A DNA stretch of 64,000 nt, from contig JBAQNJ010000001.1 in the NCBI GenBank assembly GCA_049303675.1, positions 747,569 to 811,568 of the forward strand. The letters run 5' to 3'. Both the position numbers and the translations under genes were made by a program. Under the pieces are notes generated by a model. The model saw nothing but the letters and a program-made list of their open reading frames with translations. It did not search any database and was not told the DNA's origin. Positions within the stretch are counted from its first letter, which is position 1; each line of letters begins with the position of its first letter. Source of the DNA: Microgenomates group bacterium. GTDB taxonomy: Bacteria; Patescibacteriota; Microgenomatia; UBA12405. Shown here piece after piece: positions 3,615-56,669 of the stretch.

Positions 3615-5159
3615 TTAATTACTTGGTATCTTAATCTCCAATCTATATATTTTACACAATCCCATGCACCCATCGGCTACTTGAGCCAAAGCAAAGTGTT
3701 TTTCGATGGTGGCATAGTCGGCATCCCAATCACTCCGATGATTAGCCAAATAATAATTTGAGATATAGACTGTCTTTCCCTCCACTATCAATCTTTCATA
3801 TAGTTTTATCAAGCTACCATCCCCTTGGTAATACTGTTCAATCAGCCCTTTACCCACTCCACTAAACTCCTGAGTCTCCGATACTGGCAATAAGGCATAG
3901 TTATGATTACTAAAATAATTGACATAAAACGCCGGTAATAGTGTCGCCAAGTAGACATCTTTATCTTTTACCTTAAAATATTGGTTAAAACTAATTACGG
4001 CACCATAATTCCACGGCACTTCATTGTCGACTCGCATATTATTCATTATTTGTCGTCGCAGAGTCGTCACTTTTCTTTCATAAAATCCGTTTATCGTCAG
4101 CCTTGACCCCAAAAAAATCAATAGCACCAACAATACCCCTACTCCAGCCAGCTTTCCCAATTTGGCAAAAATTGTCCCAGCCAACAAAATCACCAGTGGC
4201 ACAAGTGTCGAAACATATCTCCCCTCGGGATAACTTTTCATTGCATGAAATACTGTTACCGCTGCAATTATACCCACTAGATACAATGTATTTTGTCGGT
4301 ATTTTTTGTCCACCAATCCCACTACCGTCCCTATCACCCCCATCACTCCCCACCACCAGTCAAGCAGGGGATTGGTATACCACAAATAGCTACTTCCCCG
4401 TCCCATTAGCTGCCAAATGTAAACTAACAAATTTTTTCCCAAATTTATGGGGTTCATATCCCCGTTACCCCCACTCCAAATTGGCAAATGGCTAAATAGA
4501 TACCAGCCACCCAACATACCGGCAAGCCCACCCCACCTGATTGCCACTATCCATAATTTCTTATCATTTTGTTTGAATAATTTGGACACCGTTCCCAGTC
4601 CCAGTATCGCGATTACCGGCAGTGCCGACATTTTGGTCAATAGTAGCAATATTGCCACCACTATACTCAACCGCAAATTTGACAAGCTTATTTTATCCAT
4701 CAACACTAAAGCCGTAGCTAACGTCAAGGGAATCAATAAGTTTTCTGCCATCAATAAAGTTGGCAAGTTATAAAAATAAAAATTACTCACCCAGACTATA
4801 CCCAAACCCCAGCTTAACCACCGGTTTCCAAACAACTTCTCCGCTAATTTTTGAAATAAAAATATAGTTAGCAAACATAAAGCAATATTTAGCCAATAAT
4901 ATGATCGAACATCATTGGTCAGCCAAAAAACTGGCGCCAATAATATGCCATACAACGGCGGTACTACTGAATTGATGGTGTACCCCTCAATTGACATCTC
5001 AAATCCCTTGCCCTGCACCCAGTTCCACGCCGGTACCGAATAATATAATGTATCCGGATACGGCTCCAAATTGCCAATCAAATTATTTTGCTTATACGGA
5101 TTCTTCCCTGCCAAAGACAGATATATCAAACACAAGCTAATTACCACCACTATTTTTTG
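3615..5159 (-). CDS. GT-C superfamily membrane glycosyltransferase-like protein
   Basis: ~11 TM helices, periplasmic-loop PDTLYY motif, soluble C-terminal domain; ORF track start 5219 overlaps yfhO, in-frame Met at 5159 preferred. Confidence 0.5.
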   Translation of the reverse strand, partial: QKIVVVISLCLIYLSLAGKNPYKQNNLIGNLEPYPDTLYYSVPAWNWVQGKGFEMSIEGYTINSVVPPLYGILLAPVFWLTNDVRSYYWLNIALCLLTIFLFQKLAEKLFGNRWLSWGLGIVWVSNFYFYNLPTLLMAENLLIPLTLATALVLMDKISLSNLRLSIVVAILLLLTKMSALPVIAILGLGTVSKLFKQNDKKLWIVAIRWGGLAGMLGGWYLFSHLPIWSGGNGDMNPINLGKNLLVYIWQLMGRGSSYLWYTNPLLDWWWGVMGVIGTVVGLVDKKYRQNTLYLVGIIAAVTVFHAMKSYPEGRYVSTLVPLVILLAGTIFAKLGKLAGVGVLLVLLIFLGSRLTINGFYERKVTTLRRQIMNNMRVDNEVPWNYGAVISFNQYFKVKDKDVYLATLLPAFYVNYFSNHNYALLPVSETQEFSGVGKGLIEQYYQGDGSLIKLYERLIVEGKTVYISNYYLANHRSDWDADYATIEKHFALAQVADGCMGLCKIYRLEIKIPSN

Positions 5160-35110: not shown

Positions 35111-36376
35111 ATGATATCCAAAACCCCTAAAATATTTTTCCAAAAAATTAAAAATATATTTTGGCATCTGCCCAAAAGTTTTTTTTATAACATTTATTTT
35201 GGTCAACCCTCAAAAAAACTTATCTTGATTGGTGTCACCGGCACCGATGGCAAGACCACCACCGTTAACTTAATTCATCAGACTCTACTTCAATGCGGAA
35301 TCAAGGCCGGTGCTATTTCCACCCTCGGCGCCAAGATCGGCGACAGAAATATCAGTGTAGGCTTACACACTACTTCTCCTGATCCTAAAAAGGTTAATCA
35401 GATATTTCAAGCCATGATCGAAGAGGGGATAACTCATGTTGTTGTCGAAGTTACCGCTCACGCCTTAGACCAATTTAGATTTTTTGGCTGCTACTTTCAG
35501 GTATCTGTTCTCACCAACACTTCCCACGAACATCTTGATGACTTTTATGACTTGAATCGCTATATCGCTACAAAGGCCAAGCTTTTTTCTCAATCAAACA
35601 TAACAATTCTCAACAAAGATGATCCTTCATATAATTCCATCTCTAAGTTATCTTTACAAAATGTAAAGACCTATGGCACCCACCCCAAAAATGATTATTT
35701 AGCCACCAATATCAAGCTAACCAAATCAAAACTAATCTTTAAAATAAACAATCTCCCAGTTAGTACCAATAGTAATTATTTATATCAGGTTCACAACATT
35801 TTGGCGACATTTGGAGTTATTGATTCTCTTGGACTACCGATTGCCGCTCTGATCGAGATTATCAAGGACTTTCCCGCCATGAAGGGTCGCCGTGAAAATA
35901 TCCCCAATGATTATAAAATTAATTGCCTAGTTGATTTCGCTCACACCCCAGCCGCACTCAAGTCAACTCTAGAGACAATCAAGCAAATCACTTCTGGAAA
36001 ATGCATCGTTATTTTTGGCGCCACTGGCGGTCGTGATCCCAGCAAACGCCCCCTAATGGGACAAGTAGTCTCCGAAACAGCCGATATCGCTATTATCACC
36101 GCCGATGATACCCGCAACGAAAAAGTTGAGGATATAAACCGACAAATAATTAGTGGTATTGGCCAACCCAAAAATAAAAAATTTATCTATTACGATATCC
36201 CCAATCGGCAAGATGCCTTCAACCTAGCTGTCAAACTCGCCGCCAAAGGAGATACCATTATCGCCTGTGGTAAAGGCCATGAAACCACTATCCTTCACGG
36301 ACACACCGAATACCCATGGTCAGAAGCCGAAGCGTTTAGGACTGCCCTCCGTTATCGATTTGCCAACAATGCCTAA
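35111..36376 (+). CDS. murE: UDP-N-acetylmuramoyl-tripeptide ligase MurE (short form)
   Basis: GVTGTDGKTTT P-loop, Mur ligase middle and C domains. Confidence 0.75.
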   Translation: MISKTPKIFFQKIKNIFWHLPKSFFYNIYFGQPSKKLILIGVTGTDGKTTTVNLIHQTLLQCGIKAGAISTLGAKIGDRNISVGLHTTSPDPKKVNQIFQAMIEEGITHVVVEVTAHALDQFRFFGCYFQVSVLTNTSHEHLDDFYDLNRYIATKAKLFSQSNITILNKDDPSYNSISKLSLQNVKTYGTHPKNDYLATNIKLTKSKLIFKINNLPVSTNSNYLYQVHNILATFGVIDSLGLPIAALIEIIKDFPAMKGRRENIPNDYKINCLVDFAHTPAALKSTLETIKQITSGKCIVIFGATGGRDPSKRPLMGQVVSETADIAIITADDTRNEKVEDINRQIISGIGQPKNKKFIYYDIPNRQDAFNLAVKLAAKGDTIIACGKGHETTILHGHTEYPWSEAEAFRTALRYRFANNA

Positions 36377-36956
36377 ATTTAATCTTAGTACTAGCGACTC
36401 TATTGAAAAAAACTACGAGAGGGGATTGTTGCCTCAACGTAATAATAAAGATAAATTTTACTTTGATTCCAGCAGTCGCAGTAATCTGGCCGACTTTTCG
36501 CTATCCTCAGAAAACAAAAGAATTATAAACAAAACTGAAAATTTTGCCTATAAATCACTACCACTATCATCATTAAACTTTGACCTTTTTCTTCAAAAAC
36601 AATTATATAAGTGGATAAAAGAATTAGACTGGTCGTTTCCCATTAGTTCAGTAAAAATTATATTCAATAACCATATATTCAACCATGTTGATATATGGTA
36701 TGACAAAGATATTCCCATCGCTTACCTTATATCGTATATCGACAAAAATATTACACACGCAGCTTATTTATTTTACGATTCAAAATATTCTCACGGAAAT
36801 TTACCAATTAGAATTGTATTACAGTTTGTAATAGATTCCCAAAAACAGGATAAAAAATATTGTTATCTAGGACGTTTCTCTAAAGAAATAGGTTTTTATA
36901 AACGCAACATGCCCAATTTTGAATATTTTAAGGACAACCAATGGCTAAAATATTAA
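36369..36956 (+). CDS. Ate1/Bpt C-terminal-domain (ATE_C, GNAT-fold) aminoacyl-tRNA--protein transferase-like protein
   Basis: AAYLFYDSKYSHGNL and YCYLGRFSKEIGFYKRNMPNFEYF match the ATE_C hallmark blocks; ATG at 36369 adopted (ORF-track start overlaps murE). Confidence 0.45.
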   Translation: MPKFNLSTSDSIEKNYERGLLPQRNNKDKFYFDSSSRSNLADFSLSSENKRIINKTENFAYKSLPLSSLNFDLFLQKQLYKWIKELDWSFPISSVKIIFNNHIFNHVDIWYDKDIPIAYLISYIDKNITHAAYLFYDSKYSHGNLPIRIVLQFVIDSQKQDKKYCYLGRFSKEIGFYKRNMPNFEYFKDNQWLKY

Positions 36957-38194
36957 ACATCCACATACTTGGACTCGCCGGTGTCATGACCGCTCCTTTG
37001 GCCCAAGCATTAATTAAATTAGGCCACAAGGTTACTGGTAGTGATCAGCAAAACATTTACCCTCCCATCAGTAATCTGATTTCCAACATACCTTTAAACC
37101 AGCCACTCGGAGCAATTGATTTAGTCATTGTCGGTTCATCATATAAATCATTCAAAATATGCCAAGAGCAGTTTATAGAAATTAAGAAAAAAAATATTCC
37201 ATATATCAGCGCTACTCAATATTTGGCTCAAAATTTAATTAAAAAGGAATCAATATTAGTTGCCGGTTCATACGGCAAAACTACTACTACTGCGCTACTC
37301 GCATGGCTCATGCCATCTGCAAATTATTTTTTTGGGGGAACAGCTATTGATAATTTTCCCTCAATTAACTTGTCAGATTCACAGTGGTCTATAGTCGAAG
37401 CTGATGAATCCATCAATGGCCTAGATCAACAGGCGAAATTTCTTTATTATCCAGTTAAGTATTTGATTCTCACCAGTGCCCAGTGGGAACATAAAGAATC
37501 CTATAAATCCGTTGAAGATAATTTTCAAGCCTACAAAAAACTTATTCAAAATATACCCCCAGACGGACTCCTAATATACAATCCAACTGATGCTGATATC
37601 CAAAAGCTTTTACCCTATTGCAAGGCTAAAACAATTCATTATGAAAAAAAAGTATTTGATACCAAATTAATTGGTCAACATAATCAACAAAATATTTCTG
37701 CTGTTTTTACTTTATCTAAATATCTGAACATTCCATTTGATATTTCCCGATTTTCCGGCATCAGACGACGATTAGAAATTATTTCCGATAAAGATGATAT
37801 TTTAATAATCGATGATTTTGCCCAATCCGCCGACAGAGTCAAGTCTGCCCTAGAAGCCGTCAAATTTTCCTATCCCCACCGTCGGATTGTTATTTATTTT
37901 GAGCCTCACGCCACCTTTCTCCGAAATCAACAGAGCCTCCAACCATTCAAATTCATCACCGATTTCTGTGATGAATTTATCTTAGGGAAAATTATTTTTT
38001 CCCCAGATATCAAACCTCGTGTCACCGCCAAAGATTGGCAAAATATTATTGGCAGCCAGATGAAATACTTACCTCTATATGATGATGTTTTACATTATCT
38101 AAAACAAAGTTTGCACCCTCGGGATATCCTCATCCATTTTAGTTCTGGTGGACTAGATGGACTCAACACTCTCAAAAAAGTTTATAATAATTAA
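36941..38194 (+). CDS. murC: Mur ligase, MurC/Mpl-like
   Basis: HILGLAGVMTAPLAQALIKLGHKVTGSD N-domain typical of MurC/Mpl, GSYGKTTTT P-loop. Confidence 0.65.
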   Translation: MAKILNIHILGLAGVMTAPLAQALIKLGHKVTGSDQQNIYPPISNLISNIPLNQPLGAIDLVIVGSSYKSFKICQEQFIEIKKKNIPYISATQYLAQNLIKKESILVAGSYGKTTTTALLAWLMPSANYFFGGTAIDNFPSINLSDSQWSIVEADESINGLDQQAKFLYYPVKYLILTSAQWEHKESYKSVEDNFQAYKKLIQNIPPDGLLIYNPTDADIQKLLPYCKAKTIHYEKKVFDTKLIGQHNQQNISAVFTLSKYLNIPFDISRFSGIRRRLEIISDKDDILIIDDFAQSADRVKSALEAVKFSYPHRRIVIYFEPHATFLRNQQSLQPFKFITDFCDEFILGKIIFSPDIKPRVTAKDWQNIIGSQMKYLPLYDDVLHYLKQSLHPRDILIHFSSGGLDGLNTLKKVYNN

Positions 38195-38197
38195 CAC

Positions 38198-39232
38198 ATG
38201 ATTCATTTATACCTTGGCCTACTCTTATTTTCATTTCTGACCAATAGTATTTTGGTTGTTCCCTTTATTAATTTACTCTATCGACTAAAATTCCAACGCC
38301 AATCCCAAAACACACTCGATTTTCAAAACAAACACACCACTATATTTGACAAATTTCACAGTCAAAAATCGGGGACTCCAGTTGGCGGGGGATTACTCAT
38401 AATTAGCACGGTCTCAGTTTTATTCCTCCTCTTATTCCCTATACTTCGATTTTCCAATATTTACATCTCCAGCAATTATAAAATTTCCCAAGAAATTACT
38501 ATCATCTTTTTTACTTTTATCAGCTTTGCCGTCCTCGGGTTATATGACGATGTTCTCAAATTCTTCAATTTTAGTAAGTCCGGATTTTTTGGACTGAGAA
38601 TGATGCACAAATTAACTCTTCAGATATTATTATCGTTATTTATTTCACTCTACTTATATATCAACTTGGGGATCAATTTTGTTTATGTCCCCTTTGTCGG
38701 GGCCGTGAGTTTGTCCTGGCTGGCAGTGCCACTCTATACCTTAATTATTGCCACTTTTGCCAACTTCTTTAACATTAGTGATGGCTTAGATGGATTATCC
38801 TGCGGCCTATTGATGATCGCTCTCTTTGCCTTTTGGTTCTTATCCAATACTTCGCTCGACACTCCTATTTCCCTATTTCTCGCCTTGTGGATAGGCGCCT
38901 TAATTGCTTTTCTCTACTTTAATGTCTACCCCGCCAGAATTTGGCTGGGCGATGTTGGCTCACTATCGTTTGGGGCCACCTTTGCCCTAATTGCCATTAT
39001 CTTAGGCAAACTCGTCCCTCTAATAATAGTTGGCTCACCTTTTATTGTCGAAGGATTGAGTAGTGCCCTCCAAATATTTAGTAAAACTTATTTTCACAAA
39101 AAGATATTCCCAGCAGCACCCATCCATCTAACTCTCCAAAAAAAGGGCTGGGAAGAGCCCAAAATAGTTTTCCGAGCCTGGCTGGCAGGGATTATATTAG
39201 CAATTTTTGGCCTATGGTTGGGACTAAGCTAA
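38198..39232 (+). CDS. mraY: phospho-N-acetylmuramoyl-pentapeptide transferase
   Basis: DD..K, NFFNISDGLDGL, polytopic. Confidence 0.9.
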   Translation: MIHLYLGLLLFSFLTNSILVVPFINLLYRLKFQRQSQNTLDFQNKHTTIFDKFHSQKSGTPVGGGLLIISTVSVLFLLLFPILRFSNIYISSNYKISQEITIIFFTFISFAVLGLYDDVLKFFNFSKSGFFGLRMMHKLTLQILLSLFISLYLYINLGINFVYVPFVGAVSLSWLAVPLYTLIIATFANFFNISDGLDGLSCGLLMIALFAFWFLSNTSLDTPISLFLALWIGALIAFLYFNVYPARIWLGDVGSLSFGATFALIAIILGKLVPLIIVGSPFIVEGLSSALQIFSKTYFHKKIFPAAPIHLTLQKKGWEEPKIVFRAWLAGIILAIFGLWLGLS

Positions 39233-39744
39233 ACGACGAGATCACCAAGTATTTGGGCATACCCTATTTTACCAACAAGGGTAAATATCAAAACTCAGGT
39301 GAAAATGTTTTTGTGGGCAAGGGCAGCGCCCGAGAGATTGCTCTAGCCACGATTGATCTCGCCAATCAACAAAATATCAAGTTACTTAATCTCAGCGCCT
39401 CACAAATCCACAATTTTCAGCAGAAAAATCACTTGGGTATCGACTGTTCCGGATTGGTATGCCATCTCTTAGATCTGAATGTAAATGTCCGTCGAACATC
39501 AGCCGATATGCTCACTTCTCCTCCCTTGGCTCAACCTGTAAACCAGCCCCAAACAGGGGATTTGATTCGCCAAAAAGATGGCGGCCACGTATTATTAGTT
39601 TTATCTATCAATAAAAATATCATTACCTATATACATTCATCCCGAGCAACTCATGGAGTTGTGGTGGAGTCAAAAAACATCACTTTAATTCCCCATCAGG
39701 GAATATGGAGAATTACTTCTCCTCAACTAGCTCACGATAAGTAA
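39214..39744 (+). CDS. NlpC/P60 (C40) family cell-wall peptidase
   Basis: catalytic Cys in IDCSGLVCHLL, His in GGHVLLVL, third polar residue downstream. Confidence 0.55.
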   Translation: MVGTKLNDEITKYLGIPYFTNKGKYQNSGENVFVGKGSAREIALATIDLANQQNIKLLNLSASQIHNFQQKNHLGIDCSGLVCHLLDLNVNVRRTSADMLTSPPLAQPVNQPQTGDLIRQKDGGHVLLVLSINKNIITYIHSSRATHGVVVESKNITLIPHQGIWRITSPQLAHDK

Positions 39745-39880
39745 TTGGAGAAAGTGATTGGATCTCAACTTCTGTTCCACATTCACCGCATTCCAGAATA
39801 TCACCCACCACCATTCCCTCAATTGGGACAATTTCCGCATTACAATCGGGACACATTATCTTGACATTCGCATCATCCAT
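39713..39880 (-). CDS. LysW-like CxxC...CxxC zinc-ribbon protein (55 aa), not in ORF track
   Basis: manual translation MDDANVKIMCPDCNAEIVPIEGMVVGDILECGECGTEVEIQSLSPITYRELVEEK; fits LysW/amino-group carrier ribbon pattern CP.C...I......G.I.EC..CG.E.E. Confidence 0.35.
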   Translation of the reverse strand: MDDANVKIMCPDCNAEIVPIEGMVVGDILECGECGTEVEIQSLSPITYRELVEEK

Positions 39881-39912
39881 AAATTTTAGTTAAAATATAA
39901 TTACTCTATTAT

Positions 39913-40665
39913 ATGACACCTCTAGAACAATTTGGCCTAGTATTTCTTAAACGTGAAGATAAAAATATAACCGGCTCAGCCAAAGACCGTGCTATTGATC
40001 TTCAGACAAACCAAAAAATGACTCACGCCGTCATTTCCTCAACCGGCAATGCGGCTATTTCCGCCCAATATTTTTGTCACTTAAAAAATATCCAGCTGAC
40101 TACTTTTATTTCACCTAAAACTAGCCTCCAAAAGATAAAACTCATTGATAATCCGATTGTTACCGATAAACCAATATCAGAATCTTTCAAATTTTCCAAA
40201 AAAAATCACTCTTATTTATTACGCCAATCAACTGACCCCATTGCTTTACTGGGCTATCAAAAGATCGGCCAAGAAATTATTGTTCAATGTCCCCTAATAA
40301 CTAGCCTATTTATTGCTGTAGGTAGTGGCACCACTTTATTGGGCATCTCTCAGGCCCTACCAAAATCAGTCAAAATATTTGCAGTTCAACCAGCATCACA
40401 CTGCCCAATAGCTTCTCATTTTGACAAAGATTTCCAACCAGAGTCGATGACTATTACCGACGCCCTCAACACCAAATTATTACCCCTAAAACAAAAGGTT
40501 ATTGATGCTTGTTTTTCGGGAGTTGTTGTCCAAAACAAAGACATTCTCCCCACAATTGATACTTCAGCCGAAGGCAACCTCGCTTATGCTGGTTACCTCA
40601 AAGCCAAAACTAGGCACCAACTCGGTAACTATCCCGTTATAGTTTTGACCGGTACCCAGCGATGA
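39913..40665 (+). CDS. truncated PLP-dependent enzyme, Trp-synthase-beta (PALP) superfamily, threonine-synthase-like
   Basis: K.EDKN.TGSAKDRA (PLP lysine), SSTGNAA, GSGTTLLG glycine loop, VIVLTGTQ C-terminus; only 250 aa. Confidence 0.55.
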   Translation: MTPLEQFGLVFLKREDKNITGSAKDRAIDLQTNQKMTHAVISSTGNAAISAQYFCHLKNIQLTTFISPKTSLQKIKLIDNPIVTDKPISESFKFSKKNHSYLLRQSTDPIALLGYQKIGQEIIVQCPLITSLFIAVGSGTTLLGISQALPKSVKIFAVQPASHCPIASHFDKDFQPESMTITDALNTKLLPLKQKVIDACFSGVVVQNKDILPTIDTSAEGNLAYAGYLKAKTRHQLGNYPVIVLTGTQR

Positions 40666-41768
40666 CCCCACTTGAAAACCACCTCAACTCACTTCCTTAT
40701 ATTTTCTACTTCTTAGTAGTTGATCCATATCTCGACATCAGTTTGCCCGATCTTTCCAATTTTATATCCATCTCACCTCAAAAACTTGGCATTACTCTTG
40801 ACCAAAAAAATTCCGGTCGACTCTTATCCCATCCCCTATGTTTGGATTTCATTAAGAAAAACACCCCCTCAGGATTCGTTCCGGCTATTATTCCCTTCAA
40901 ACCTTCTCCCAAAATTGATTTGATTTGTACCCAAAATAATTGGGTCAAAATAAGCAATCCCAGTTCAACCAACCGCTACTTTGAAGATAAAATAATATTC
41001 GCCGATCTCTTAGATAAACAGGGCATTTCTCACCTTCCTCATCTTATCAGTACTTTTAACCACCAAAACTATCACCAAATTCAACAAAAATTTGGCCAAC
41101 ATCTGGTAATTCAAACCCATTTTGGTTGGGCTGGAAATAGCTCCTACCTTAGCCATGATTTTAACGATATCAATAGCAAAATAGTTGACGGCACTCCCAT
41201 AAAAGCCTCGCCTTTTTTTCAGGGGATTTCCCTAATTAATAACTGTTGCCTAATTGACAATCAACTTATTCAAAGTCCTCCTGGGCTACAGTTCACCGGC
41301 CACCCGCTCTTAACTGACAACCCTCTGGCTACAGTCGGGCGACAATGGCCCTCGCATACTCCTGCCAATATCAACCAACAGCTTTTTGACATCACTACTA
41401 ATTTTTCAAAAATATTATCTAGTCATAAATATAAAGGTTTTTTTGGACTCGATTTTTTTGTCAGCCAGGACAAAGTTTATCTCCTCGAGTGTAATCCCCG
41501 CCTTACCGCCTCATTTGCCTTTTATACTCAAATTGAGCAAAAAAATCAGCTAGATCCATTATTTTATTACCACCTACTTTCCTTTTTGCCTCAAAATTTC
41601 TATTACCCCTCGTTCGATCGTTTTAACAACAACCTAGTTGGCGCCCAGTTGACTAAAAAAAATTCGCAGGGAGCTACCGTCGAGAAATTCGAAGACCTAG
41701 TCGATATCTGCCCAACGGGTGACCCCCATACCATCTCCCCAGAGTATGTTGAAAAACTAACCAAATGA
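40662..41768 (+). CDS. ATP-grasp family ligase (non-Ddl type)
   Basis: GFFGLDFFVSQDKVYLLECNPRLTAS C-terminal ATP-grasp signature. Confidence 0.55.
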   Translation: MTPLENHLNSLPYIFYFLVVDPYLDISLPDLSNFISISPQKLGITLDQKNSGRLLSHPLCLDFIKKNTPSGFVPAIIPFKPSPKIDLICTQNNWVKISNPSSTNRYFEDKIIFADLLDKQGISHLPHLISTFNHQNYHQIQQKFGQHLVIQTHFGWAGNSSYLSHDFNDINSKIVDGTPIKASPFFQGISLINNCCLIDNQLIQSPPGLQFTGHPLLTDNPLATVGRQWPSHTPANINQQLFDITTNFSKILSSHKYKGFFGLDFFVSQDKVYLLECNPRLTASFAFYTQIEQKNQLDPLFYYHLLSFLPQNFYYPSFDRFNNNLVGAQLTKKNSQGATVEKFEDLVDICPTGDPHTISPEYVEKLTK

Positions 41769-42853
41769 AATCTCGCCGCTTTATCCTCATTATTTTCTCC
41801 CTATTGTTAATTGGTTTAGTATTTATCTCTATTTCTTCGATCACCGAAGCCAGTCATACATTGGGCGATAAGTTCTTTTTTATAAAAAAACAACTAGTTT
41901 GGTCTGGCATAGGTATATTTTCCTTCATTTTTGCCTCAAAAATACCCCTAAGCCTGATTAAGAAATACTCGCCTCATTTTTATATATTTACTGTGATCTT
42001 GCTCCTTTTGACCCTCATTCCTCAGTTTAGCAATAGTGCTCTTGGCGCTCGTCGCTGGCTCGACCTCGGCGGTATTGGTATACAACCCTCGGAAATATTC
42101 AAATTATCATCAATAATTTTTTTTGCCCATATCTTTTCATTTGAGAAATACCGGCAAATCAAATATATCTTTTATTACTTATTGTTACCCCTCTGTTTAA
42201 TTATGCTTGAGCCAAATATGAGTACCACTGTTCTCGCCGGTGCCATAGTTATCACTATTTTTTATGTCAGTGGCGGCAGTCTCTCCACAATTATTACCCT
42301 CTGTGCTCTAGCTATTATTTCCAGTGTAATTTTGATCGCCGTTTCCCCCTACCGCAAAGCCAGATTAGACTCAACTTCCTATCATTCCAACCAAATGGCG
42401 CTCACTATTACTTCAGGTCATTTATTAGGCAAGGGATTCGCCAATTCCGACCAAAAGTATCGTTATCTACCCAAAATTTCTACTGACTCCATTTTGGCGG
42501 TAATTGGCGAAGAAACTGGCTTTATTGGTATAAGTCTCATCATCTTTCTCTTTTACACCCTTATATCAAACATTTTTCTACTCGGTTTATCCCAGTCTCC
42601 CACCAGTTTTAATTATTTATTGTGTTTAGGAATTGGTAGTTGGTTGGCTTACCAAAGCCTCATAAACATGGCCGCCGTGGCTTCCTTAATCCCCTTGACT
42701 GGGGTTACTCTACCACTAATTTCCTACGGCGGCTCATCTCTCACTACCTGCCTGCTTGGACTCGGATTAATTAATAACTTGATATACTCTTCTAAGAATG
42801 AAACATCAAAAAACCATCATTATCACCGGCACACATCACACTCCCGCCATTGA
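41765..42853 (+). CDS. ftsW: SEDS-family peptidoglycan glycosyltransferase FtsW
   Basis: polytopic, LPLISYGGSSL C-terminal motif, dcw position. Confidence 0.8.
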   Translation: MKSRRFILIIFSLLLIGLVFISISSITEASHTLGDKFFFIKKQLVWSGIGIFSFIFASKIPLSLIKKYSPHFYIFTVILLLLTLIPQFSNSALGARRWLDLGGIGIQPSEIFKLSSIIFFAHIFSFEKYRQIKYIFYYLLLPLCLIMLEPNMSTTVLAGAIVITIFYVSGGSLSTIITLCALAIISSVILIAVSPYRKARLDSTSYHSNQMALTITSGHLLGKGFANSDQKYRYLPKISTDSILAVIGEETGFIGISLIIFLFYTLISNIFLLGLSQSPTSFNYLLCLGIGSWLAYQSLINMAAVASLIPLTGVTLPLISYGGSSLTTCLLGLGLINNLIYSSKNETSKNHHYHRHTSHSRH

Positions 42854-46980: not shown

Positions 46981-49734
46981 ATGTTCTTTCCCGAACTCCC
47001 AAACCAACCAAATTTTCCCGAATTAGAAACTGCCGTTCTGGAATGGTGGTATAGCCACGATATTGTCAATCAATATCTCCACAAAAACGACAATTCCACC
47101 AAAACCTTTTCTTTTATCGATGGCCCAATTACTGCCAACGGTAGTATGGGGGTCCACCATGCCCGCGGTCGCACTCTCAAAGACGCCTTCCAAAGATTCA
47201 AAAATGCCCAAGGATTCGCCCAAAGATTTCAAAACGGTTTCGACTGTCAGGGACTCTGGGTCGAAGTCGAGGTCGAAAAAGAAAATGGCTTCAATTCCAA
47301 AAAGGACATTACCAATTTTGGCCTCGACAAATTCACCCAATCCTGTCTCGCCCGTGTTGATAAATTTAGTCATCTCCAAACCGATCAATCCAAGAGACTA
47401 GGGATGTTTATGGATTGGGACAACTCCTATTACACCAATTCCGAAAATAATAATCTATATATTTGGCACTTTCTCAAAACAGTCCACCAAAAAGGCTGGC
47501 TCACCAAAAAAAAGAGTGCCACTACCTGGTGCCCTCGCTGTGAAACTGGATTATCCCAACACGAAGAGGCTGATGGCTACAAAGACATCACCGACACCTC
47601 TGTTTATTTAAAGTTTAAATTAAAAGACAAAACAAACGAATATGTCCTCGCCTGGACTACCACTCCATGGACACTCTCGGCCAATGTCCTCCTCGCCATC
47701 AATACTAAATTTGAATATGTCAGAGCCAAACATGAAAATGAATTTTTGTATTTGGCCAAGCTTTCGGCTGATAAGTTAGGTCTTGCTGATTACGAACCAG
47801 TTGATGCCAATATTCTCTTAAATCAAGAATATGAGTCTCTCTACGATATTCCTGCCCAAAAAAATATTCATCATTATGTCACCAACTGGGAGATGGTCGA
47901 TCCAATTGAGGGCACCGGCGTCGTCCACATTGCCCCAGGCTGTGGTCAAGAAGATTTTGAATTAGGCAAAAAACTCGGTAGCGAAATGATCGCCCCACTC
48001 GATGAGACAGGCCACTTTTTAGATGGTTATGGCGAATTATCAGGCAAATACGCCCATCATGTTGCCAACCAGGTCTTTGATTATTTAACATCTACCGGAT
48101 CATTGTTCAAAACAGAATCCATCAACCACCGTTATCCTCATTGTTGGCGCTGTGGCACCAAGTGTTTATTTAGACTCGAAGATAGTTGGTATATCAGCTC
48201 TGACGAAATTCGTCCCCAAATGAAAGAGGCTGCCGCCAAAGTTAATTGGCATCCCAAATATGTTGGTCGCCGGATGCAAAACTGGCTTGATTCTATGGAA
48301 GATTGGATGATTAGTCGTAAACGTTTTTATGGACTGGCCCTGCCATTTTACGAATGTAGTTGTGGTGAGTTGACCGTTGTCGGTAGCAAAGAAGAATTAA
48401 AATCATTAGCTATCTCCCCTGAGCTTGTCGATGAATTACCCTCACTTCACCGCCCGTGGATAGATAGTATTAAAATCAAATGTCCCCAGTGCAATCATGA
48501 AGTTAATCGGATACCCGATGTTGGTGACTGTTGGCTGGATGCTGGCGTTGTTCCTTTCTCCACTCTCAAATATATTGAAGACAAAAAATACTGGCAAAAA
48601 TGGTTCCCTGCCGATTTAGTCCTCGAAATGATCGAACAGGTCCGTCTTTGGTTTTATTCCATGCTCTTTTTCAGTGTTACTTTTGAGCAAACTTTTCCCT
48701 ACAAAAATGTCGTCGCCCATGCCGAAGTCCGTGATGAAAAAGGTGAGCGGATGAGCAAAACTAAAAAAAATGGTATTCCCTATGATGAAGCAGTGGCCAA
48801 AATGGGCGCCGATGCCATGCGTTGGCTCTATTGTCAGCAAAAACCCCACACCAATGTCAATTTTGGCTACAATATTGCCGACAAGGTCAAACGTGAACAT
48901 TTTTTAATAATTTGGAACTCATATCGCTTCTTCACTCAGCATGCCAACATGGAAAATTGGTCACCAGACAATACTGAAATTACTACACAAAACATATTGG
49001 ATAAATGGCTGTTATCACGACTCAATTCAACCATCAAGTCAGTTACTGTATCCGTCGAAAAATTCCATACTTCAAAAGTCACCCAAGCTGTCGAAGAATT
49101 TGTCAACGATCTATCTACCTGGTATATTCGTCGCAGTCGTGACCGCAAAGATAATTTTGCCATTTTACATCATTGTTTTGATCAACTTGCTAGGGTAACA
49201 GCACCATTTACACCCTATCTTTCGGAATTAATTTATCAAAATTTACTAGGTTGTACTATTGGCCAATCATCAACTTCGATTCATTTACAACCGTGGCCAG
49301 AATCTGATTCTGAATTAATCAATACAGATTTAGAAACACAAATGTCTGTCGTTAGACGCGCCTGTCAAGACATTCACGCCCTACGTCAAAAAGCAGCGTT
49401 AAAAGTTCGTCAACCATTAGCCAGTGCCACTATTACCGACCAGTTGGATCAAAACTTATTAGACATCATCCAAGAAGAGACCAATGTCAAAAAAGTGGTA
49501 ATCGGAACAGAGTTGACACTCGATACCCAATTAACTCCCGACCTAATCGCTGAAGGTGAATACCGCGATTTTGTCCGGTCAATTCAGGTACTGCGCAAAG
49601 AGCTGGGCCTAAAAGTTGATGATAAAATCAAAATCTTTGCTCCCTCATGGCCCAGAGTTTTTGAATCTGAAATATTGACCAAAACTCTAGGAACTTCGAT
49701 AGAAATCAGCGACACACTCCATGTCGAAAAATAA
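46981..49734 (+). CDS. ileS: isoleucine--tRNA ligase
   Basis: WCPRCETGLSQHE, GFDCQGLWVE, MSK(T) motif; HIGH motif degenerate (GVHH). Confidence 0.8.
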   Translation: MFFPELPNQPNFPELETAVLEWWYSHDIVNQYLHKNDNSTKTFSFIDGPITANGSMGVHHARGRTLKDAFQRFKNAQGFAQRFQNGFDCQGLWVEVEVEKENGFNSKKDITNFGLDKFTQSCLARVDKFSHLQTDQSKRLGMFMDWDNSYYTNSENNNLYIWHFLKTVHQKGWLTKKKSATTWCPRCETGLSQHEEADGYKDITDTSVYLKFKLKDKTNEYVLAWTTTPWTLSANVLLAINTKFEYVRAKHENEFLYLAKLSADKLGLADYEPVDANILLNQEYESLYDIPAQKNIHHYVTNWEMVDPIEGTGVVHIAPGCGQEDFELGKKLGSEMIAPLDETGHFLDGYGELSGKYAHHVANQVFDYLTSTGSLFKTESINHRYPHCWRCGTKCLFRLEDSWYISSDEIRPQMKEAAAKVNWHPKYVGRRMQNWLDSMEDWMISRKRFYGLALPFYECSCGELTVVGSKEELKSLAISPELVDELPSLHRPWIDSIKIKCPQCNHEVNRIPDVGDCWLDAGVVPFSTLKYIEDKKYWQKWFPADLVLEMIEQVRLWFYSMLFFSVTFEQTFPYKNVVAHAEVRDEKGERMSKTKKNGIPYDEAVAKMGADAMRWLYCQQKPHTNVNFGYNIADKVKREHFLIIWNSYRFFTQHANMENWSPDNTEITTQNILDKWLLSRLNSTIKSVTVSVEKFHTSKVTQAVEEFVNDLSTWYIRRSRDRKDNFAILHHCFDQLARVTAPFTPYLSELIYQNLLGCTIGQSSTSIHLQPWPESDSELINTDLETQMSVVRRACQDIHALRQKAALKVRQPLASATITDQLDQNLLDIIQEETNVKKVVIGTELTLDTQLTPDLIAEGEYRDFVRSIQVLRKELGLKVDDKIKIFAPSWPRVFESEILTKTLGTSIEISDTLHVEK

Positions 49735-50716
49735 TTGGTTGCCATTGTTTATCAGTTTAGGAATTCTCTTTTCCCTAAACATGCTCATGATTAGCTCCCT
49801 AGCGCCAACTCTGGTTGGTAAACAGTTGTTTTCTTGGGCTATTGGCCTATGTCTTTTTTTTATCGGCCGTCAAATAAACCCTCGCCAAATTGCCTCATCC
49901 AAAACAGTTGTTTTTATTATTTCCTGCCTACTATTATTGTTACCTATCCTTTTAAACAATATTACTCGTGGCTCGCGACGCTGGATAGAACTTGGCTTCG
50001 TCTCCATCCAGCCCTCAGAATTTGTCAAACCATGGCTGATGTTATTTTTAGTTAATACCAAATTTCCCTTGCTGATATTATTGCCCTTTGCTATTACCCT
50101 TGCCCAGCCAGATTTGGGTAGTGGACTAACAATTTTACTGCTCACTGCCCCTCTAATTTTATACAACAGTCGGTTTTTCAAACAAGTAGTGATACTTGGT
50201 CTAATTGCCATTACTCTCTCACCCTTAGTTTGGACTTATGCCTTTCATGATTATCAAAAAGAGAGAATTACCCACTTTCTCAGTCCCAATTCCGATCCTT
50301 TGGGCAAGGGCTACAATGTCATCCAATCCAAAATAGCCATTGGCTCGGGTGGCATTTGGGGCAAAGGGTATAAAAAGGGGACGCAGGGGCAACTATTATT
50401 TTTACCCGAAAAACACACTGATTTCATGTTTGCTTCCACCGCCGAAGAGCTCGGATTAATTGGCATCATTTTTATTCTTGGCTCCTATATCTTACTTATC
50501 AAAACTCTCATTACTCGAGGTTACAGTCTCCAATCCAATCCTCAGCTAAAATTATTTACACTAGGTATAGTTTTTCAAATTTGGTTTACTGTCTTTATCA
50601 ACATTGGTATGAATTTAGGTATTTTACCAGTCACCGGCATCCCCCTACCATTTATTTCCGTTGGCGGCTCCTCCCTCATGGCCCTAATGTTTTCACTAGG
50701 GATTATCTATTCCTAA
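49721..50716 (+). CDS. rodA: SEDS-family protein, RodA-like
   Basis: polytopic, LPVTGIPLPFISVGGSSL. Confidence 0.75.
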   Translation: MSKNNWLPLFISLGILFSLNMLMISSLAPTLVGKQLFSWAIGLCLFFIGRQINPRQIASSKTVVFIISCLLLLLPILLNNITRGSRRWIELGFVSIQPSEFVKPWLMLFLVNTKFPLLILLPFAITLAQPDLGSGLTILLLTAPLILYNSRFFKQVVILGLIAITLSPLVWTYAFHDYQKERITHFLSPNSDPLGKGYNVIQSKIAIGSGGIWGKGYKKGTQGQLLFLPEKHTDFMFASTAEELGLIGIIFILGSYILLIKTLITRGYSLQSNPQLKLFTLGIVFQIWFTVFINIGMNLGILPVTGIPLPFISVGGSSLMALMFSLGIIYS

Positions 50717-51062
50717 CTAGTCGAACTGGATTAACAGCCACCCTTAATCCTTTTTTTGTTTCATATACTATTGATGTATACCTATACATACTATAAATAC
50801 CATCTCCAAAATTTGCCACATCAAAACTTGTCTCAATTGAATCTAACTTAGCAACTCTCGGATTCAATTTAACATCCACACCATCACTCCCCTTGTCTTC
50901 AACACTCTCTATGCCCCAACTCTTCAAAATTTTTTGGGCTGCAACCTCTGCTTTGCTTGCGCTTTTTAATGGTAGTCTTCCTAATGGCCTACCTTCTTTT
51001 ATAGATATTCTAGTATTTTCTATTGCTACTATTGTTTCGTTCATACCCATAATATAACCCAC
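50703..51062 (-). CDS. hypothetical protein
   Basis: ORF only. Confidence 0.3.
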   Translation of the reverse strand: MGYIMGMNETIVAIENTRISIKEGRPLGRLPLKSASKAEVAAQKILKSWGIESVEDKGSDGVDVKLNPRVAKLDSIETSFDVANFGDGIYSMYRYTSIVYETKKGLRVAVNPVRLVRNR

Positions 51063-51107
51063 AATAAGTGAATGTAAATAAATAATCCTATGCTATAATC
51101 AAAAAGT

Positions 51108-51422
51108 ATGAAATACGCCGTAATTGCCATTAGTGGCACTCAATATCTGGTCAAAGAAGACCAAGTTATCACCGTCGATAACCAAAATCTCGAAAAAGAT
51201 AAAAAAAATAAAATCGAAGAAGTCCTCTTGACCGTCAATGACGATCAAGTCAAGGTCGGTACTCCTTTCGTCACTGGTGCTACCGTCGAATATCAGGTCG
51301 CCGAAAACTACAAAGGTGAAAAAGTTGACGTCTTCAAATTCAAATCAAAATCTCGTTATCGCCGCTCCATGGGCTTCCGTCCCCAGCTGACCGATATTAA
51401 AATTACCAAGATCAACCTATAG
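51108..51422 (+). CDS. rplU: 50S ribosomal protein L21
   Basis: MKYAVIAISGTQYLVKEDQVI. Confidence 0.9.
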   Translation: MKYAVIAISGTQYLVKEDQVITVDNQNLEKDKKNKIEEVLLTVNDDQVKVGTPFVTGATVEYQVAENYKGEKVDVFKFKSKSRYRRSMGFRPQLTDIKITKINL

Positions 51423-51462
51423 CTTTATAACTTTCAACTTTATAAACTTTACAAACTAATCT

Positions 51463-51714
51463 ATGGCACATACCAAATCACAAGGAAAAACCAATCAAAA
51501 ATCCAATCGTCCTGGGCAAAGACGGGGAGTCAAAAAATTTGGTGATCAAAAAGTCACTGTTGGCCAGATCATTGTCCGTCAAGTTGGTTCCTCTTTTCAT
51601 GGATCCGATGGTACCAAAACCGGCAAAGACTATACTATCTACGCCATGCGTCCGGGTATTGTCAAATTTTTCTCTCGCTTAGGCAAAAAATTCATCTCCG
51701 TCGTCAAAGGCTAA
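51463..51714 (+). CDS. rpmA: 50S ribosomal protein L27
   Basis: MAHTKSQGKT...G.KKFGDQ.V..GQIIVRQ.G..FH.G. Confidence 0.9.
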   Translation: MAHTKSQGKTNQKSNRPGQRRGVKKFGDQKVTVGQIIVRQVGSSFHGSDGTKTGKDYTIYAMRPGIVKFFSRLGKKFISVVKG

Positions 51715-54227: not shown

Positions 54228-56669
54228 CTAATCAAGTAACAACTTGGCTACCACCATCTGCGCCGAGGCACTGCGAATATCATTTATTTTCCAATACATT
54301 TTGGCCCGTTTCAACATCTCCTCAGACTTTTCCCAATTCAACGCCTCGATTAAACTTAATTTACTATTTGATTTGTGATTTTCAAAACGATGCCAGTCAA
54401 TTTCAAAGTGATGTCTCATATCCAATATTTTTGGGTAATTGTCAATAATTCTACTACTAATTGTCGTTTCCCTATTTTTATTTCTAAACTGAATTATCTT
54501 TTTTAGAGCCTCAATATATTCCCGATGATTTAGTTTATCTGCCGCATTTTTTAGATCCTTGTCATTCTTATATATTGCCCTCAATTTGGATAAATCTCGT
54601 CTTATTGTCTCCAAGAAAGAGAGAGTTATAGTTTTATCCTTCTTAGCCTCACCCTCTACATAATCCCAACTCTCACTGTTTCCCATTATTCCAGAAGCTA
54701 GATGATAAGTGCCATTTTCAGTGCCGACAATAGAGCTAACACAATTATTACTATAATTATTCATTATCAGAAATCCACTCTCATCACTTCTTACTTCAGT
54801 CAGGTTGGGACACTTAACTTTTAAATAGGCCGGAGAGCCAATAAAAAATATTTTCTGGCCCACTAGTTCTTCACTTATATGAGCCGCGGTCTGAGATAGA
54901 CCAATCACCCTCATAATATCGCCCAAACCACTGTCAATTAGATTCCCGTGGAGTGATCCCAGAACAGTATTACCGTCACCCTCAAAACCTTGTTTTGACT
55001 CCAATACCGTCCCATCACCGTTGTTTTGAGTATAGCTCACCAGACTTCCGTCAGGCCATCTATTCAACATTTTGTCTAGCATACTTCTATTTTTCAAGTT
55101 GACCCATGCCGGAGTATCAAACCCCGACCCTATCAGGCTTTGGTATTGGGGAAATATATCTGCCACATCGTTATCTTTACTCTGCAGATAATTATTTAGA
55201 TACGATAAATTCTCAAAATGTAATACACTTCCATTCTTTTTTGCAAAGTCGTAGATAGGTATCAGATTTCCCAACATCGGTATGAAATTGTGGACTACCT
55301 CCACTTTTGTCGGATACTTGTCCTTTTGCAATTGTAACAATATATTTAGGGCAGTAGTCGCTAGATTGTCCTCACCAGCCACCTTACCGCTATTCCACAG
55401 AGAATATGGATCCATCGACCCGTATTGCGGACTCCCAGCACCAATTACTTGCCAGACCCTTGGATCTCCAACATGGTCTTGCAACCAAACCCGAGCTACC
55501 ACTCCACCCAAACTATGACCCACTATAACTACTTTATCATTATTACCTGTTTTACCGTCAAAATAATTATCAAACTTATCCACAATTTCCGCTATTGGCC
55601 GCCGCCAGTCATAGTTCCACACAAAATAATCAACGTCTTTTTGATAGCCGTTCAAAATCAGGGAGTTGATCAGTGAATCATAATTATGAACAAATGGAGT
55701 CATCCGCCAGCTATCATCCGACACGACACGGTTGTATACCAATGCTTCAGAATTCCAACTCGCCCCAGTCCCCGGAATTATTATTACCTTTTTTCGTGGC
55801 AATGGAGTCGGAGTATTTGTGGGGGTAGGGGTACTAGTTGGAGTCGGTGTACTAGTTGGCGTTGGCGTACTTGTCGGCAATGGAGTATTTGTCGGAATCG
55901 GAGTCTCAGTTGGGACGGGTGTATTTGTTGGGGTAGGGGTGAAAGTGGGAGAGGGGGTGACAACTAGCGGACAAAGATTAGTGGAAATACTTACATTATC
56001 AAAATTTGCAACCGTATCGTTAAAATAGTCACCACCCCATGCTTGTAAACCAATATACCCTTCAGTTAGCACTGGATAAAAGACAACACCAGAATCTGTA
56101 TAATCAATAACAGGCCAAGTACCGTAAAAAACCCTTATTCGACTTCCCGACATAGTGATTCTAACCCGAACAGTCGTACCATGTATCAATTGGTATAGAT
56201 TTGAATATGCAGATGGAAATGCATCATACAGCAGATGAAATCTTCCATCTACAAATTTATACAAAACTATATCATTTGCTGGATCTTGCGGCCATAGTGG
56301 TTCCGGATATCTAAAACCTACCATATAGTATGAATTCATATCATCCGAAACTCTAAAGATAATCTGTTGGTCAACTCCGTTTACTCCAGTAATATCTGCG
56401 GCTAATTCGAAGTCACTTAATTTACCAATAATCGGATATATTGATCTCAACTCTTGCCTTGATACTCTACTTGATAATATTCCGTCATTGATAGTCCAAT
56501 TTAACGAACAATCACTACTACATGTCCAACTTGTCGACAAACTACCGATATCTACGAAATGATCAGAAAAACACTCCTCTGCAAACACAACAGTTGTAGA
56601 CCGCAATGATAAAATACCTAGACAAACAAAACAAAAAGAAAGAAATAAACGAACAATGTTTTTTTCCAC
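54228..56669 (-). CDS. secreted multidomain protein: N-terminal beta-sandwich/lectin-like domain, Pro-Thr linker, alpha/beta-hydrolase (lipase/esterase, PGAP1/DUF676-like) domain, C-terminal helical domain
   Basis: signal peptide; TPTPTSTPTPT linker (res 237-291); GHSLGG nucleophile elbow at Ser386. Confidence 0.6.
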   Translation of the reverse strand: MEKNIVRLFLSFCFVCLGILSLRSTTVVFAEECFSDHFVDIGSLSTSWTCSSDCSLNWTINDGILSSRVSRQELRSIYPIIGKLSDFELAADITGVNGVDQQIIFRVSDDMNSYYMVGFRYPEPLWPQDPANDIVLYKFVDGRFHLLYDAFPSAYSNLYQLIHGTTVRVRITMSGSRIRVFYGTWPVIDYTDSGVVFYPVLTEGYIGLQAWGGDYFNDTVANFDNVSISTNLCPLVVTPSPTFTPTPTNTPVPTETPIPTNTPLPTSTPTPTSTPTPTSTPTPTNTPTPLPRKKVIIIPGTGASWNSEALVYNRVVSDDSWRMTPFVHNYDSLINSLILNGYQKDVDYFVWNYDWRRPIAEIVDKFDNYFDGKTGNNDKVVIVGHSLGGVVARVWLQDHVGDPRVWQVIGAGSPQYGSMDPYSLWNSGKVAGEDNLATTALNILLQLQKDKYPTKVEVVHNFIPMLGNLIPIYDFAKKNGSVLHFENLSYLNNYLQSKDNDVADIFPQYQSLIGSGFDTPAWVNLKNRSMLDKMLNRWPDGSLVSYTQNNGDGTVLESKQGFEGDGNTVLGSLHGNLIDSGLGDIMRVIGLSQTAAHISEELVGQKIFFIGSPAYLKVKCPNLTEVRSDESGFLIMNNYSNNCVSSIVGTENGTYHLASGIMGNSESWDYVEGEAKKDKTITLSFLETIRRDLSKLRAIYKNDKDLKNAADKLNHREYIEALKKIIQFRNKNRETTISSRIIDNYPKILDMRHHFEIDWHRFENHKSNSKLSLIEALNWEKSEEMLKRAKMYWKINDIRSASAQMVVAKLLLD
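55797..55961. repeat. imperfect ~18-nt tandem repeats encoding the Pro-Thr linker
   Basis: GGNGTACTNGTNGGNGTN-type units; produce spurious antisense GVGVLVGVGV ORFs. Confidence 0.6.

Follow-up and report, generated by a model that had tools for sequence, protein, structure and literature searches.

We analysed a stretch of 64,000 nucleotides (nt) from a Microgenomates group bacterium (contig JBAQNJ010000001.1, positions 747,569 to 811,568; this whole stretch is called the window) and focused on a four-gene module in its division and cell wall (dcw) cluster. The module encodes an NlpC/P60-like cysteine peptidase, a LysW-like zinc-ribbon protein, a pyridoxal 5'-phosphate (PLP) enzyme of the PALP family and an ATP-grasp ligase, and it was found in about 160 Patescibacteria loci, mostly from Microgenomates. 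It appears to be a new and widespread form of the amino-acid chemistry that carrier proteins mediate, recruited here to peptidoglycan synthesis, and it probably serves the synthesis of the stem peptide in some way. Because of the combined logic of carrier, PLP enzyme and peptidase, together with the linkage to murD, the likeliest function is the supply of D-glutamate for the murD step (stem-peptide position 2), a proposal that we put forward tentatively.

The four genes between mraY and ftsW

A sequence-only reading of the window had drawn attention to the PALP and ATP-grasp genes as a 4-nt overlapped pair between mraY and ftsW, in the slot usual for murD. Both open reading frames (ORFs) are intact, with exact coordinates, and the mraY-ftsW placement was confirmed; the ATP-grasp ORF overlaps ftsW by 4 nt as well. 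The two genes are indeed linked to the dcw cluster, but as a pair they are incomplete, since the locus holds a four-gene module with a LysW-like carrier and an NlpC/P60 peptidase. These two genes had been overlooked, as had the MurE-like and MurC/Mpl-like genes. The cluster is laid out as follows, with lengths in amino acids (aa).

Head of the cluster, plus strand: rsmH, a short ftsL-like ORF and ftsI
35111..36376, plus strand: MurE-family ligase, 421 aa, without the N-terminal Mur ligase domain (TIGR01085, Pfam)
About 36369..36956, plus strand: GNAT-fold protein resembling the ATE/Bpt C-terminal domain (Pfam ATE_C, NCBIfam arginyltransferase)
36941..38194, plus strand: divergent MurC/Mpl-like Mur ligase, 417 aa (NCBIfam murC, mpl)
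38198..39232, plus strand: MraY, the upstream boundary of the module (Pfam Glycos_transf_4, 8.8e-28; Escherichia coli MraY by phmmer, 1.6e-27)
39214..39744, plus strand: cytoplasmic NlpC/P60-like cysteine peptidase, 176 aa (Pfam NLPC_P60)
39713..39880, minus strand: LysW-like zinc-ribbon protein, 55 aa (Pfam Zn_ribbon_LysW)
39913..40665, plus strand: minimal fold-type II PLP enzyme (PALP), 250 aa (Pfam PALP)
40662..41768, plus strand: ATP-grasp ligase, 368 aa, related to NCBIfam PRK06524 (marginal Pfam match, E276-x-N278-P-R280)
41765..42853, plus strand: FtsW (SEDS family), the downstream boundary of the module (Pfam FTSW_RODA_SPOVE, 2.2e-82)
Tail of the cluster after ftsW, plus strand: murG, a short ftsQ-like ORF, ftsA and ftsZ

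The 170-nt "gap" before the PALP gene encodes the 55-aa minus-strand protein, which has two CxxC pairs and the tail ...RELVEEK and is the proposed carrier or substrate protein of the module. It matched Pfam Zn_ribbon_LysW (PF21344) at 33.6 bits (cut-off 27), and its relatives scored 43-53 bits. The four cysteines are conserved in clade and outgroup sequences. The C-terminal residue is lysine in all 74 distinct clade sequences and in 48 of the 49 outgroup sequences; the tail reads ..EEK in 46 of the 49, and in two distant loci it ends in ..DEK (L172) and ..EEK (L171). LysW is the amino-group carrier protein of Thermus and archaeal lysine/arginine pathways, in which LysX or ArgX loads the substrate at the C-terminal glutamate (PMC12998189); in Thermococcus LysW, the cargo is carried on the C-terminal E53 (PMC12998189). 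Tested for a C-terminal glutamate as the attachment residue, the LysW-like protein failed, with lysine in its place. None of lysX, lysZ, lysY, lysJ and lysK was found among the neighbouring genes in any locus examined.

In most loci the LysW-like gene lies antisense, directly upstream of the PALP gene. It was always antisense to the operon (window 39713-39912; L170 8852-9061; L171 8869-9033; L172 2180-2323), and the 3' ends of this gene and of its upstream neighbour (NlpC/P60 or MurD) usually overlap, while in L172 they abut. The spacer between the divergent LysW-like and PALP genes is about 30 nt long and AT-rich in the window. Antisense or bidirectional-promoter effects may couple expression of the LysW-like gene to that of the operon.

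The NlpC/P60-like protein scored 24.3 bits against Pfam PF00877 (cut-off 23), and 9 of 22 family members matched the model. Alignment of 22 orthologues showed that the catalytic Cys78 (in GIDCSG) and His125 are invariant. No N-terminal hydrophobic segment or signal peptide was visible, unlike in secreted wall hydrolases. A profile search of the PDB with this family found nothing.

The PALP protein matched Pfam PALP (PF00291) at 89.6 bits (cut-off 35), with K24 in GSAKDR as the PLP-binding lysine. The motifs noticed in the sequence-only reading held up in 40 orthologues, where GSAKDR, SS[TS]GNAA, GSGTTLLG and the LTG..R tail were invariant or nearly so, and the fold is backed by an AlphaFold model (predicted local distance difference test (pLDDT) score, 94) in which 241 of 250 residues superpose on threonine deaminase at 2.0 Å. 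The shortness of the protein is real, but the deficit of 100-150 aa claimed for it was overstated, as it is about 50-100 aa shorter than usual. Orthologues measure 248-287 aa in the window's clade and 276-367 aa in sister lineages, and, set against the longer sister-lineage forms, the window protein is missing about 35 residues at its N-terminus as well as some loops. A truncated gene or pseudogene was ruled out, since the antisense LysW-like gene fills the "gap", the clade orthologues have the same range of 248-287 aa and the model is a complete, confident core. The test for threonine synthase failed: the best model, PRK08329, reached 43.7 bits against a cut-off of 358 and covered residues 9-148 only. 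Models for threonine synthase, dehydratase, SbnA and cysteine synthase gave 16-44 bits against cut-offs of 266-600. Judged by these scores, the PALP protein is outside every characterised subfamily.

The ATP-grasp protein, a ligase of a distinct family, had a marginal match in Pfam (ATP-grasp_3, 24.2 bits; cut-off 23.2). Its fold and its metal-binding E-x-N motif place it in the ATP-grasp superfamily, the structure model is confident (pLDDT 93.7), and E276-x-N278-P-R280 forms the metal/phosphate motif. The nearest named family is NCBIfam PRK06524 ("biotin carboxylase"-like), of which it is not a member (79 bits; cut-off 684); its larger relatives scored 77-194 bits. In a search of 1.84 billion cluster representatives, the compact form was found in about 18 clusters and relatives of 430-490 aa in 274 clusters at E < 1e-30. 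PDB sequence searches, single or profile, gave nothing or motif-level matches only, and no PurK or biotin-carboxylase model came near threshold.

The absence of Ddl signatures from this protein, already seen in the sequence-only reading, was borne out. The NCBIfam Ddl models PRK01966.1-3 reached 20.6 bits (cut-off 310) over 47 residues, no Pfam Ddl domain (Dala_Dala_lig_N/C) was present, and a phmmer search with E. coli DdlB found nothing in the window. Structurally, the protein is nearer to the carboxylase and L-amino-acid-ligase types than to Ddl. An identity as Ddl was ruled out by family scores, fold ranking and coexistence with true Ddl. A loader of the LysX/RimK type was not supported by the RimK/LysX models or by the closest structural neighbours. 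P0318, a more remote homologue from Peregrinibacteria, has an unrelated, non-wall context, so the PRK06524-like family is not always wall-linked.

Conservation of the module and its link to murD

The gene order NlpC/P60, LysW-like (minus strand), PALP, ATP-grasp was kept in 85 loci of the window's clade. The compact ATP-grasp was found in 80 loci in a scan with one genome per species. Wherever the contig was long enough, the order was ftsI, MurE, ATE-like, MurC-like, often MurA, mraY, NlpC/P60, LysW-like (minus strand), PALP, ATP-grasp, ftsW and murG. A metagenome scan with the larger ATP-grasp relatives revealed 80 further, more distant Patescibacteria loci with the same core, whose source names are Shapirobacteria, Woesebacteria, Gottesmanbacteria, CPR3 and unclassified Patescibacteria. 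Linkage to the dcw cluster is thus conserved when gene order is compared among relatives, and the place of the module is kept across several Patescibacteria lineages. Fusion proteins were also found: one joins PALP to ATP-grasp (P0393, 782 aa), and four join ATP-grasp to NlpC/P60 (P0299, P0315, P0362 and P0376) and fall into four different clusters at 50 % identity, with Peregrinibacteria as the source of one. The conserved order and the fusion proteins indicate that the four genes work together.

Two variations were also recorded. The ATP-grasp is fused to a GNAT acetyltransferase domain in P0388 (622 aa), and on a Woesebacteria contig (L168, 8142-8867) a methyltransferase and a reversed MurB lie between PALP and ATP-grasp. 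No description of the module was found in the searchable literature, and the supplements of PMC7143001 held nothing relevant to it.

In the window, missing genes were sought by searches that started from E. coli proteins and by iterated searches that started from Patescibacteria ones; 10 kb on each flank (84 kb of a 998-kb genome with the window) and 85 related loci (1.39 Mb in total) were covered as well. None of ddl, murD, murF and murB was found in the window, its flanks or the related loci, in agreement with the sequence-only reading that the cluster lacks all four, and alr was likewise not found there. The MurD model TIGR01087 was unmatched in the window, where the Mur ligases are of the MurE and MurC/Mpl types only. 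An FtsI of the transpeptidase type is encoded in the cluster. Peptidoglycan synthesis has been termed "essentially complete", without details, in a related Microgenomates genome (PMC7143001).

In sister lineages, canonical Ddl and MurF share a cluster with the module (loci including L167, L168, L101, L090 and L095); the Ddl of L101 is canonical at 344 bits (NF002528 cut-off 262). L167 (GCA_049322615.1) has the order MurE, ATE-like, MurC-like, MurB, MurA, Ddl, MurF, MraY, NlpC/P60-like, LysW-like, PALP, ATP-grasp, FtsW, MurG, and L168 has the same genes in a slightly different order. Both clusters hold MurA, MurB, MurC, MurE, MurF, Ddl, MraY and MurG, and MurD is the only cytoplasmic Mur enzyme that they lack; the mraY-ftsW slot, normally that of murD, is filled by the module in L167. 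Because it coexists with Ddl and MurF, the module is not a replacement for them in these group 1 relatives, and the earlier suggestion that it replaces Ddl is contradicted by these shared clusters.

In other lineages, MurD itself accompanies the module. The ligase directly upstream of the LysW-like gene passed the murD equivalog cut-off of 212 bits in L143, L157, L160, L171 and L172 (234-258 bits). MurD and the module stand in canonical dcw order in L143, L160 and L157. In 19 group 2 loci, the genes NlpC/P60, MurD-like ligase, LysW-like, PALP and ATP-grasp lie together outside the dcw cluster; in the one such locus scanned (L136), the ligase scored 188 bits, below the murD cut-off, with murD as its best model. 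L170-L172 are operon-like module units outside any dcw cluster, and L171 and L172 are small stand-alone units with MurD upstream of the module. These results show that the most consistent partner of the module is MurD, which adds D-glutamate, and not ddl. The module as a general MurD replacement was ruled out, since MurD lies directly upstream in many lineages; replacement is possible only for the derived, ATE-like-bearing clades.

The cluster occurs in two states. The ATE-like gene was detected in 64 loci and MurD in 22, with no locus containing both, a pattern that is suggestive only; the MurC scores given below are the more telling sign. The longest ATE-like ORF of the window starts at 36267, and orthologues point to a start near 36369. 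The window protein scored 18 bits against Pfam ATE_C, below the cut-off of 25, while 15 of 18 orthologues matched (best 4e-8); the NCBIfam arginyltransferase match was 1.2e-5, and a PDB profile search with the family gave weak GNAT matches only. The MurC-like ligase of the window (36941-38194) reached 177 bits with the NCBIfam murC model (cut-off 335) and 134 bits with mpl. Across the ATE-like-bearing, MurD-less clusters, the window included, the sub-threshold murC scores were 177-288 bits and the mpl scores 133-249 bits. Where MurD accompanies the module, MurC is canonical, with murC at about 450 bits versus mpl at about 190 bits (L157 10014-11423, L162 9272-10732, L154 8708-10189).

Proposed role in stem-peptide synthesis and rival explanations

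For the supply of D-glutamate, the following route is proposed. The ATP-grasp enzyme would use ATP to join the side-chain carboxyl of an acidic amino acid, likeliest L-Glu, to the epsilon-amine of the C-terminal lysine of the carrier. Attachment through a carboxyl to a carrier amine is suggested because a PLP enzyme forms an aldimine with the free alpha-amino group of its substrate and thus requires that amine to be free, and the terminal lysine is the candidate site because it offers the only conserved amine in the carrier tail. The tethered residue would keep its alpha-amino and alpha-carboxyl groups free for the PLP enzyme. Racemisation to the D form would be the likeliest chemistry, because a tethered acidic residue has no beta or gamma leaving group. 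The NlpC/P60 peptidase would then release the D product for MurD, and a release specific for the D product fits, because NlpC/P60 enzymes classically cleave gamma-D-glutamyl amide bonds. The folds of the module proteins are compatible with this chemistry.

The window's clade may use a MurD-independent route, in which L-Ala would be added to the tethered D-Glu and the dipeptide would be released and ligated to UDP-N-acetylmuramic acid (UDP-MurNAc). In this more radical version, suggested because an ATE-like protein and an Mpl-like ligase are added there, MurD and perhaps a free glutamate racemase would have been lost and the start of the stem would be built on the carrier. Glutamate would be tethered by the ATP-grasp enzyme and racemised by the PLP enzyme, L-Ala would come from Ala-tRNA through the ATE-like protein, and L-Ala-D-Glu would be released by the NlpC/P60 peptidase and joined to UDP-MurNAc by the MurC/Mpl-like ligase. 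Mpl ligates a preformed peptide to UDP-MurNAc. We consider this version unlikely; if true, it would be a carrier- and tRNA-dependent, convergent variant of peptidoglycan precursor synthesis.

Several points weigh against the D-glutamate proposal and its extension. Known LysW carriers end in glutamate, not lysine (PMC12998189), and the ATP-grasp enzyme is not of the LysX/RimK type that loads them. The E-x-N-P-R motif is that of carboxylases and carbamoyl-phosphate synthetase, so carboxylation, in place of amide ligation, is a possible activity of this enzyme, and beta-replacement is just as conceivable for the PLP enzyme. Making D-Glu with three enzymes and ATP would also be costlier than using a simple glutamate racemase, and murD, murF, ddl, murB, murI and alr may sit elsewhere in the genome. 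Adjacency to murD could merely reflect the usual mraY-murD-ftsW order, and the non-overlap of ATE-like and MurD is partly an artefact, as many MurD loci are too short to reach the MurE-MurC region. The genes, their folds, their fusions and their conserved linkage to one another and to murD or the dcw cluster are observed, and from these we infer the cargo, its attachment site and the PLP chemistry, as well as the role of the peptidase.

Instead of D-Glu, the module might make and attach another D-amino acid or a side branch: D-Asp or D-Ser could be placed on the diamino acid, for example, or the alpha-carboxyl of D-Glu could be substituted, with the EEK tail mimicking the ...D-Glu-Lys stem end as a regulator or surrogate acceptor. 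The aspartate racemase and D-aspartate ligase (Asl) of Enterococcus faecium are a precedent for such a pair, of which the module would be a functional analogue; the dcw linkage is conserved, the PLP enzyme is reminiscent of aspartate and serine racemases that depend on PLP, the ATP-grasp is similar to ligases of amino acids and peptides, and the window-clade cluster includes an aminoacyl-tRNA-transferase-like GNAT, a type of enzyme that builds cross-bridges. However, this explanation accounts neither for the company of murD in particular, even outside dcw, nor for the fusion of a cytoplasmic NlpC/P60 peptidase to the ligase, and it offers no clear role for the invariant carrier protein; we regard it as rather unlikely. 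The carrier would have a place if LysW-related chemistry supplied the diamino acid of position 3 (lysine, ornithine or an analogue of diaminopimelate such as lanthionine or a lysine-derived diamino-dicarboxylic acid), with the PLP enzyme performing a beta- or gamma-replacement, possibly onto the epsilon-amine of the carrier lysine. Such a supply is improbable, given that the kinase, reductase and aminotransferase of the LysW pathway are absent, the ligase is not LysX-like and the conserved neighbour is MurD, not MurE.

The sequence-only reading had proposed that the pair makes or activates a non-canonical amino acid or dipeptide for the stem peptide, or replaces Ddl. Its wall-related part stands, as the genes lie in the murD slot and belong to no ordinary family, and its Ddl part does not. 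In that latter version, the PLP enzyme would substitute for an alanine or serine racemase and the ATP-grasp would be a non-canonical D-Ala-D-X ligase acting in place of Ddl, at least in this clade, whose clusters ddl and murF have left. In its favour, the two genes are coupled in translation, ddl, murF and alr were not found in the searched regions of this clade, and the transpeptidase-type FtsI requires a D-aa-D-aa donor. Even so, this version is very unlikely, because orthologous modules lie beside canonical Ddl and MurF in sister lineages, the ligase lacks Ddl signatures and is structurally nearer to carboxylases and L-amino-acid ligases, and carrier and peptidase are left without a role. 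A last explanation gives the module no specific wall role: it would hitch-hike in the dcw operon as part of ordinary amino-acid or cofactor metabolism (a threonine synthase/dehydratase relative with a PurK- or biotin-carboxylase-like enzyme) or as a system that modifies the zinc-ribbon protein. The best NCBIfam names ("threonine synthase" and "biotin carboxylase"), the carboxylase-type E-x-N-P-R motif and the Peregrinibacteria homologue outside any wall context speak for it. Yet assignment to such ordinary families, which the sequence-only reading had named as part of the outcome that would overturn it, was not obtained, as every score is far under the family thresholds (threonine synthase 44 bits against 358, PurK and biotin-carboxylase models far off). 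The position is also kept in about 160 loci of deeply diverging lineages, the module accompanies murD when outside dcw, one of its fusion partners is a peptidase whose family is associated with the cell wall, and related genomes are described as without amino-acid biosynthesis (PMC7143001). We therefore hold this explanation to be highly improbable.

A large part of Patescibacteria thus carries four extra, uncharacterised genes tied either to murD or to the dcw cluster. Those steps of peptidoglycan synthesis that take place in the cytoplasm (MurA-F, Ddl and the racemases) are regarded as near-universal and are major antibiotic targets, and to our knowledge LysW-type carriers have so far come only from lysine/arginine biosynthesis and some secondary metabolism. 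If the module supplies D-Glu or allows MurD to be bypassed, it would solve an essential step in a new way and would extend carrier chemistry to wall synthesis; it would also help to explain the source of D-amino acids in minimal genomes without amino-acid biosynthesis. Even if the mechanism is wrong, the present names of these genes ("threonine dehydratase", "PLP-dependent lyase/thiolase", "ATP-grasp domain-containing protein" and "hypothetical") hide a conserved and probably important system.

Genomic setting and comparison with known systems

MurE, and in relatives also MurF, lacks the N-terminal Mur-ligase domain, which binds the UDP moiety (window 35111-36376; L167 5854-7086; L166 4613-5869). 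Profile matches of these N-terminally short MurE and MurF proteins begin at about position 60-95. The window MurE scored 323 bits against TIGR01085 (cut-off 257), with the match starting at profile position 75-94, and its Pfam domains are Mur_ligase_M and Mur_ligase_C only. Downstream of the cluster, ftsZ is followed by a class-I aminoacyl-tRNA synthetase, for which isoleucyl-tRNA synthetase is a label by eye only, and by a second SEDS protein (RodA-like, 49721-50716). This order is kept across the clade (46981-51714; L001, L003 and most related loci), and the ribosomal proteins L21 and L27 come next in L001 and L003.

Directly upstream of the dcw cluster, positions 1-29800, together with L174, hold a large block of glycosyltransferases, PMT_2/YfhO-like membrane glycosyltransferases, LPG_synthase_TM proteins and sugar-nucleotide enzymes, with a strand switch near 11.4 kb. 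The block is probably a cell-envelope glycopolymer locus. Plus-strand ORFs at 4103-4773 were rejected as spurious, since a minus-strand gene lies there:

About 3615-5219, minus strand: gene of 534 aa (public record)

A minus-strand gene at 54228-56669 encodes an 813-aa protein in which a long linker rich in Pro and Thr (PTPTNTPVPTETP...TPTPTSTPTPTNTPTP) occurs together with a GHSLGG motif of the serine-hydrolase type. The protein has no Pfam match in the public record and, from these features, is probably a secreted or surface hydrolase. GC skew was below zero in all 2-kb bins of the window (-0.01 to -0.40), the cumulative skew fell steadily, and from about 11.5 kb on the plus strand, which is rich in C, encodes most genes. 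Related UBA1400 Microgenomates genomes are reported to show this unusual disparity between strands too (PMC7143001).

Compared with known systems, the module would resemble Ddl and the VanT/VanC pairs in that an ATP-grasp enzyme works alongside a second enzyme, the source of a D-amino acid for the stem peptide. VanT and Alr, however, are racemases of fold type III and not PALP enzymes, and the ATP-grasp differs from Ddl in its scores (20.6 bits against 310) and in coexisting with true Ddl in sister lineages. The MurD2/MurL route of Xanthomonas likewise brings D-Glu into stem position 2 by a non-canonical entry, without a free glutamate racemase. MurL epimerises the Glu already attached to UDP-MurNAc-L-Ala, with no carrier, PLP enzyme or peptidase, and no homology to the MurD2/MurL system was detected in this analysis. 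The module may also be likened, by description only, to glutathionylspermidine synthetase/amidase, in which an ATP-dependent, ATP-grasp-like amide ligase is paired or fused with a papain-like amidase of the CHAP/NlpC-P60 type, which suggests that one bond is made and later broken; the ATP-grasp-NlpC/P60 fusions among relatives of the module are the parallel, and the substrates differ.

In pearlin pathways, as outlined in PMC9303977, amino-acid-derived products are built on the C-terminus of a ribosomal scaffold peptide. The concept shared with that outline is an amino acid modified on a small gene-encoded carrier peptide, and an ATE-like GNAT accompanies the module in one clade. In pearlin systems, an aminoacyl-tRNA-dependent enzyme adds the amino acid, a protease frees the product and the carrier is reused. 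The likeness is by description only; other enzyme families are involved and the pearlin products, as outlined, are secondary metabolites. In the LysW systems with LysX or ArgX (Thermus, Sulfolobus and Thermococcus), as in the module, a small LysW-fold zinc-ribbon protein with an acidic C-terminal tail is encoded beside an ATP-grasp ligase. As in those systems, we presume that downstream enzymes act here on the tethered amino acid and that a hydrolase frees the product.

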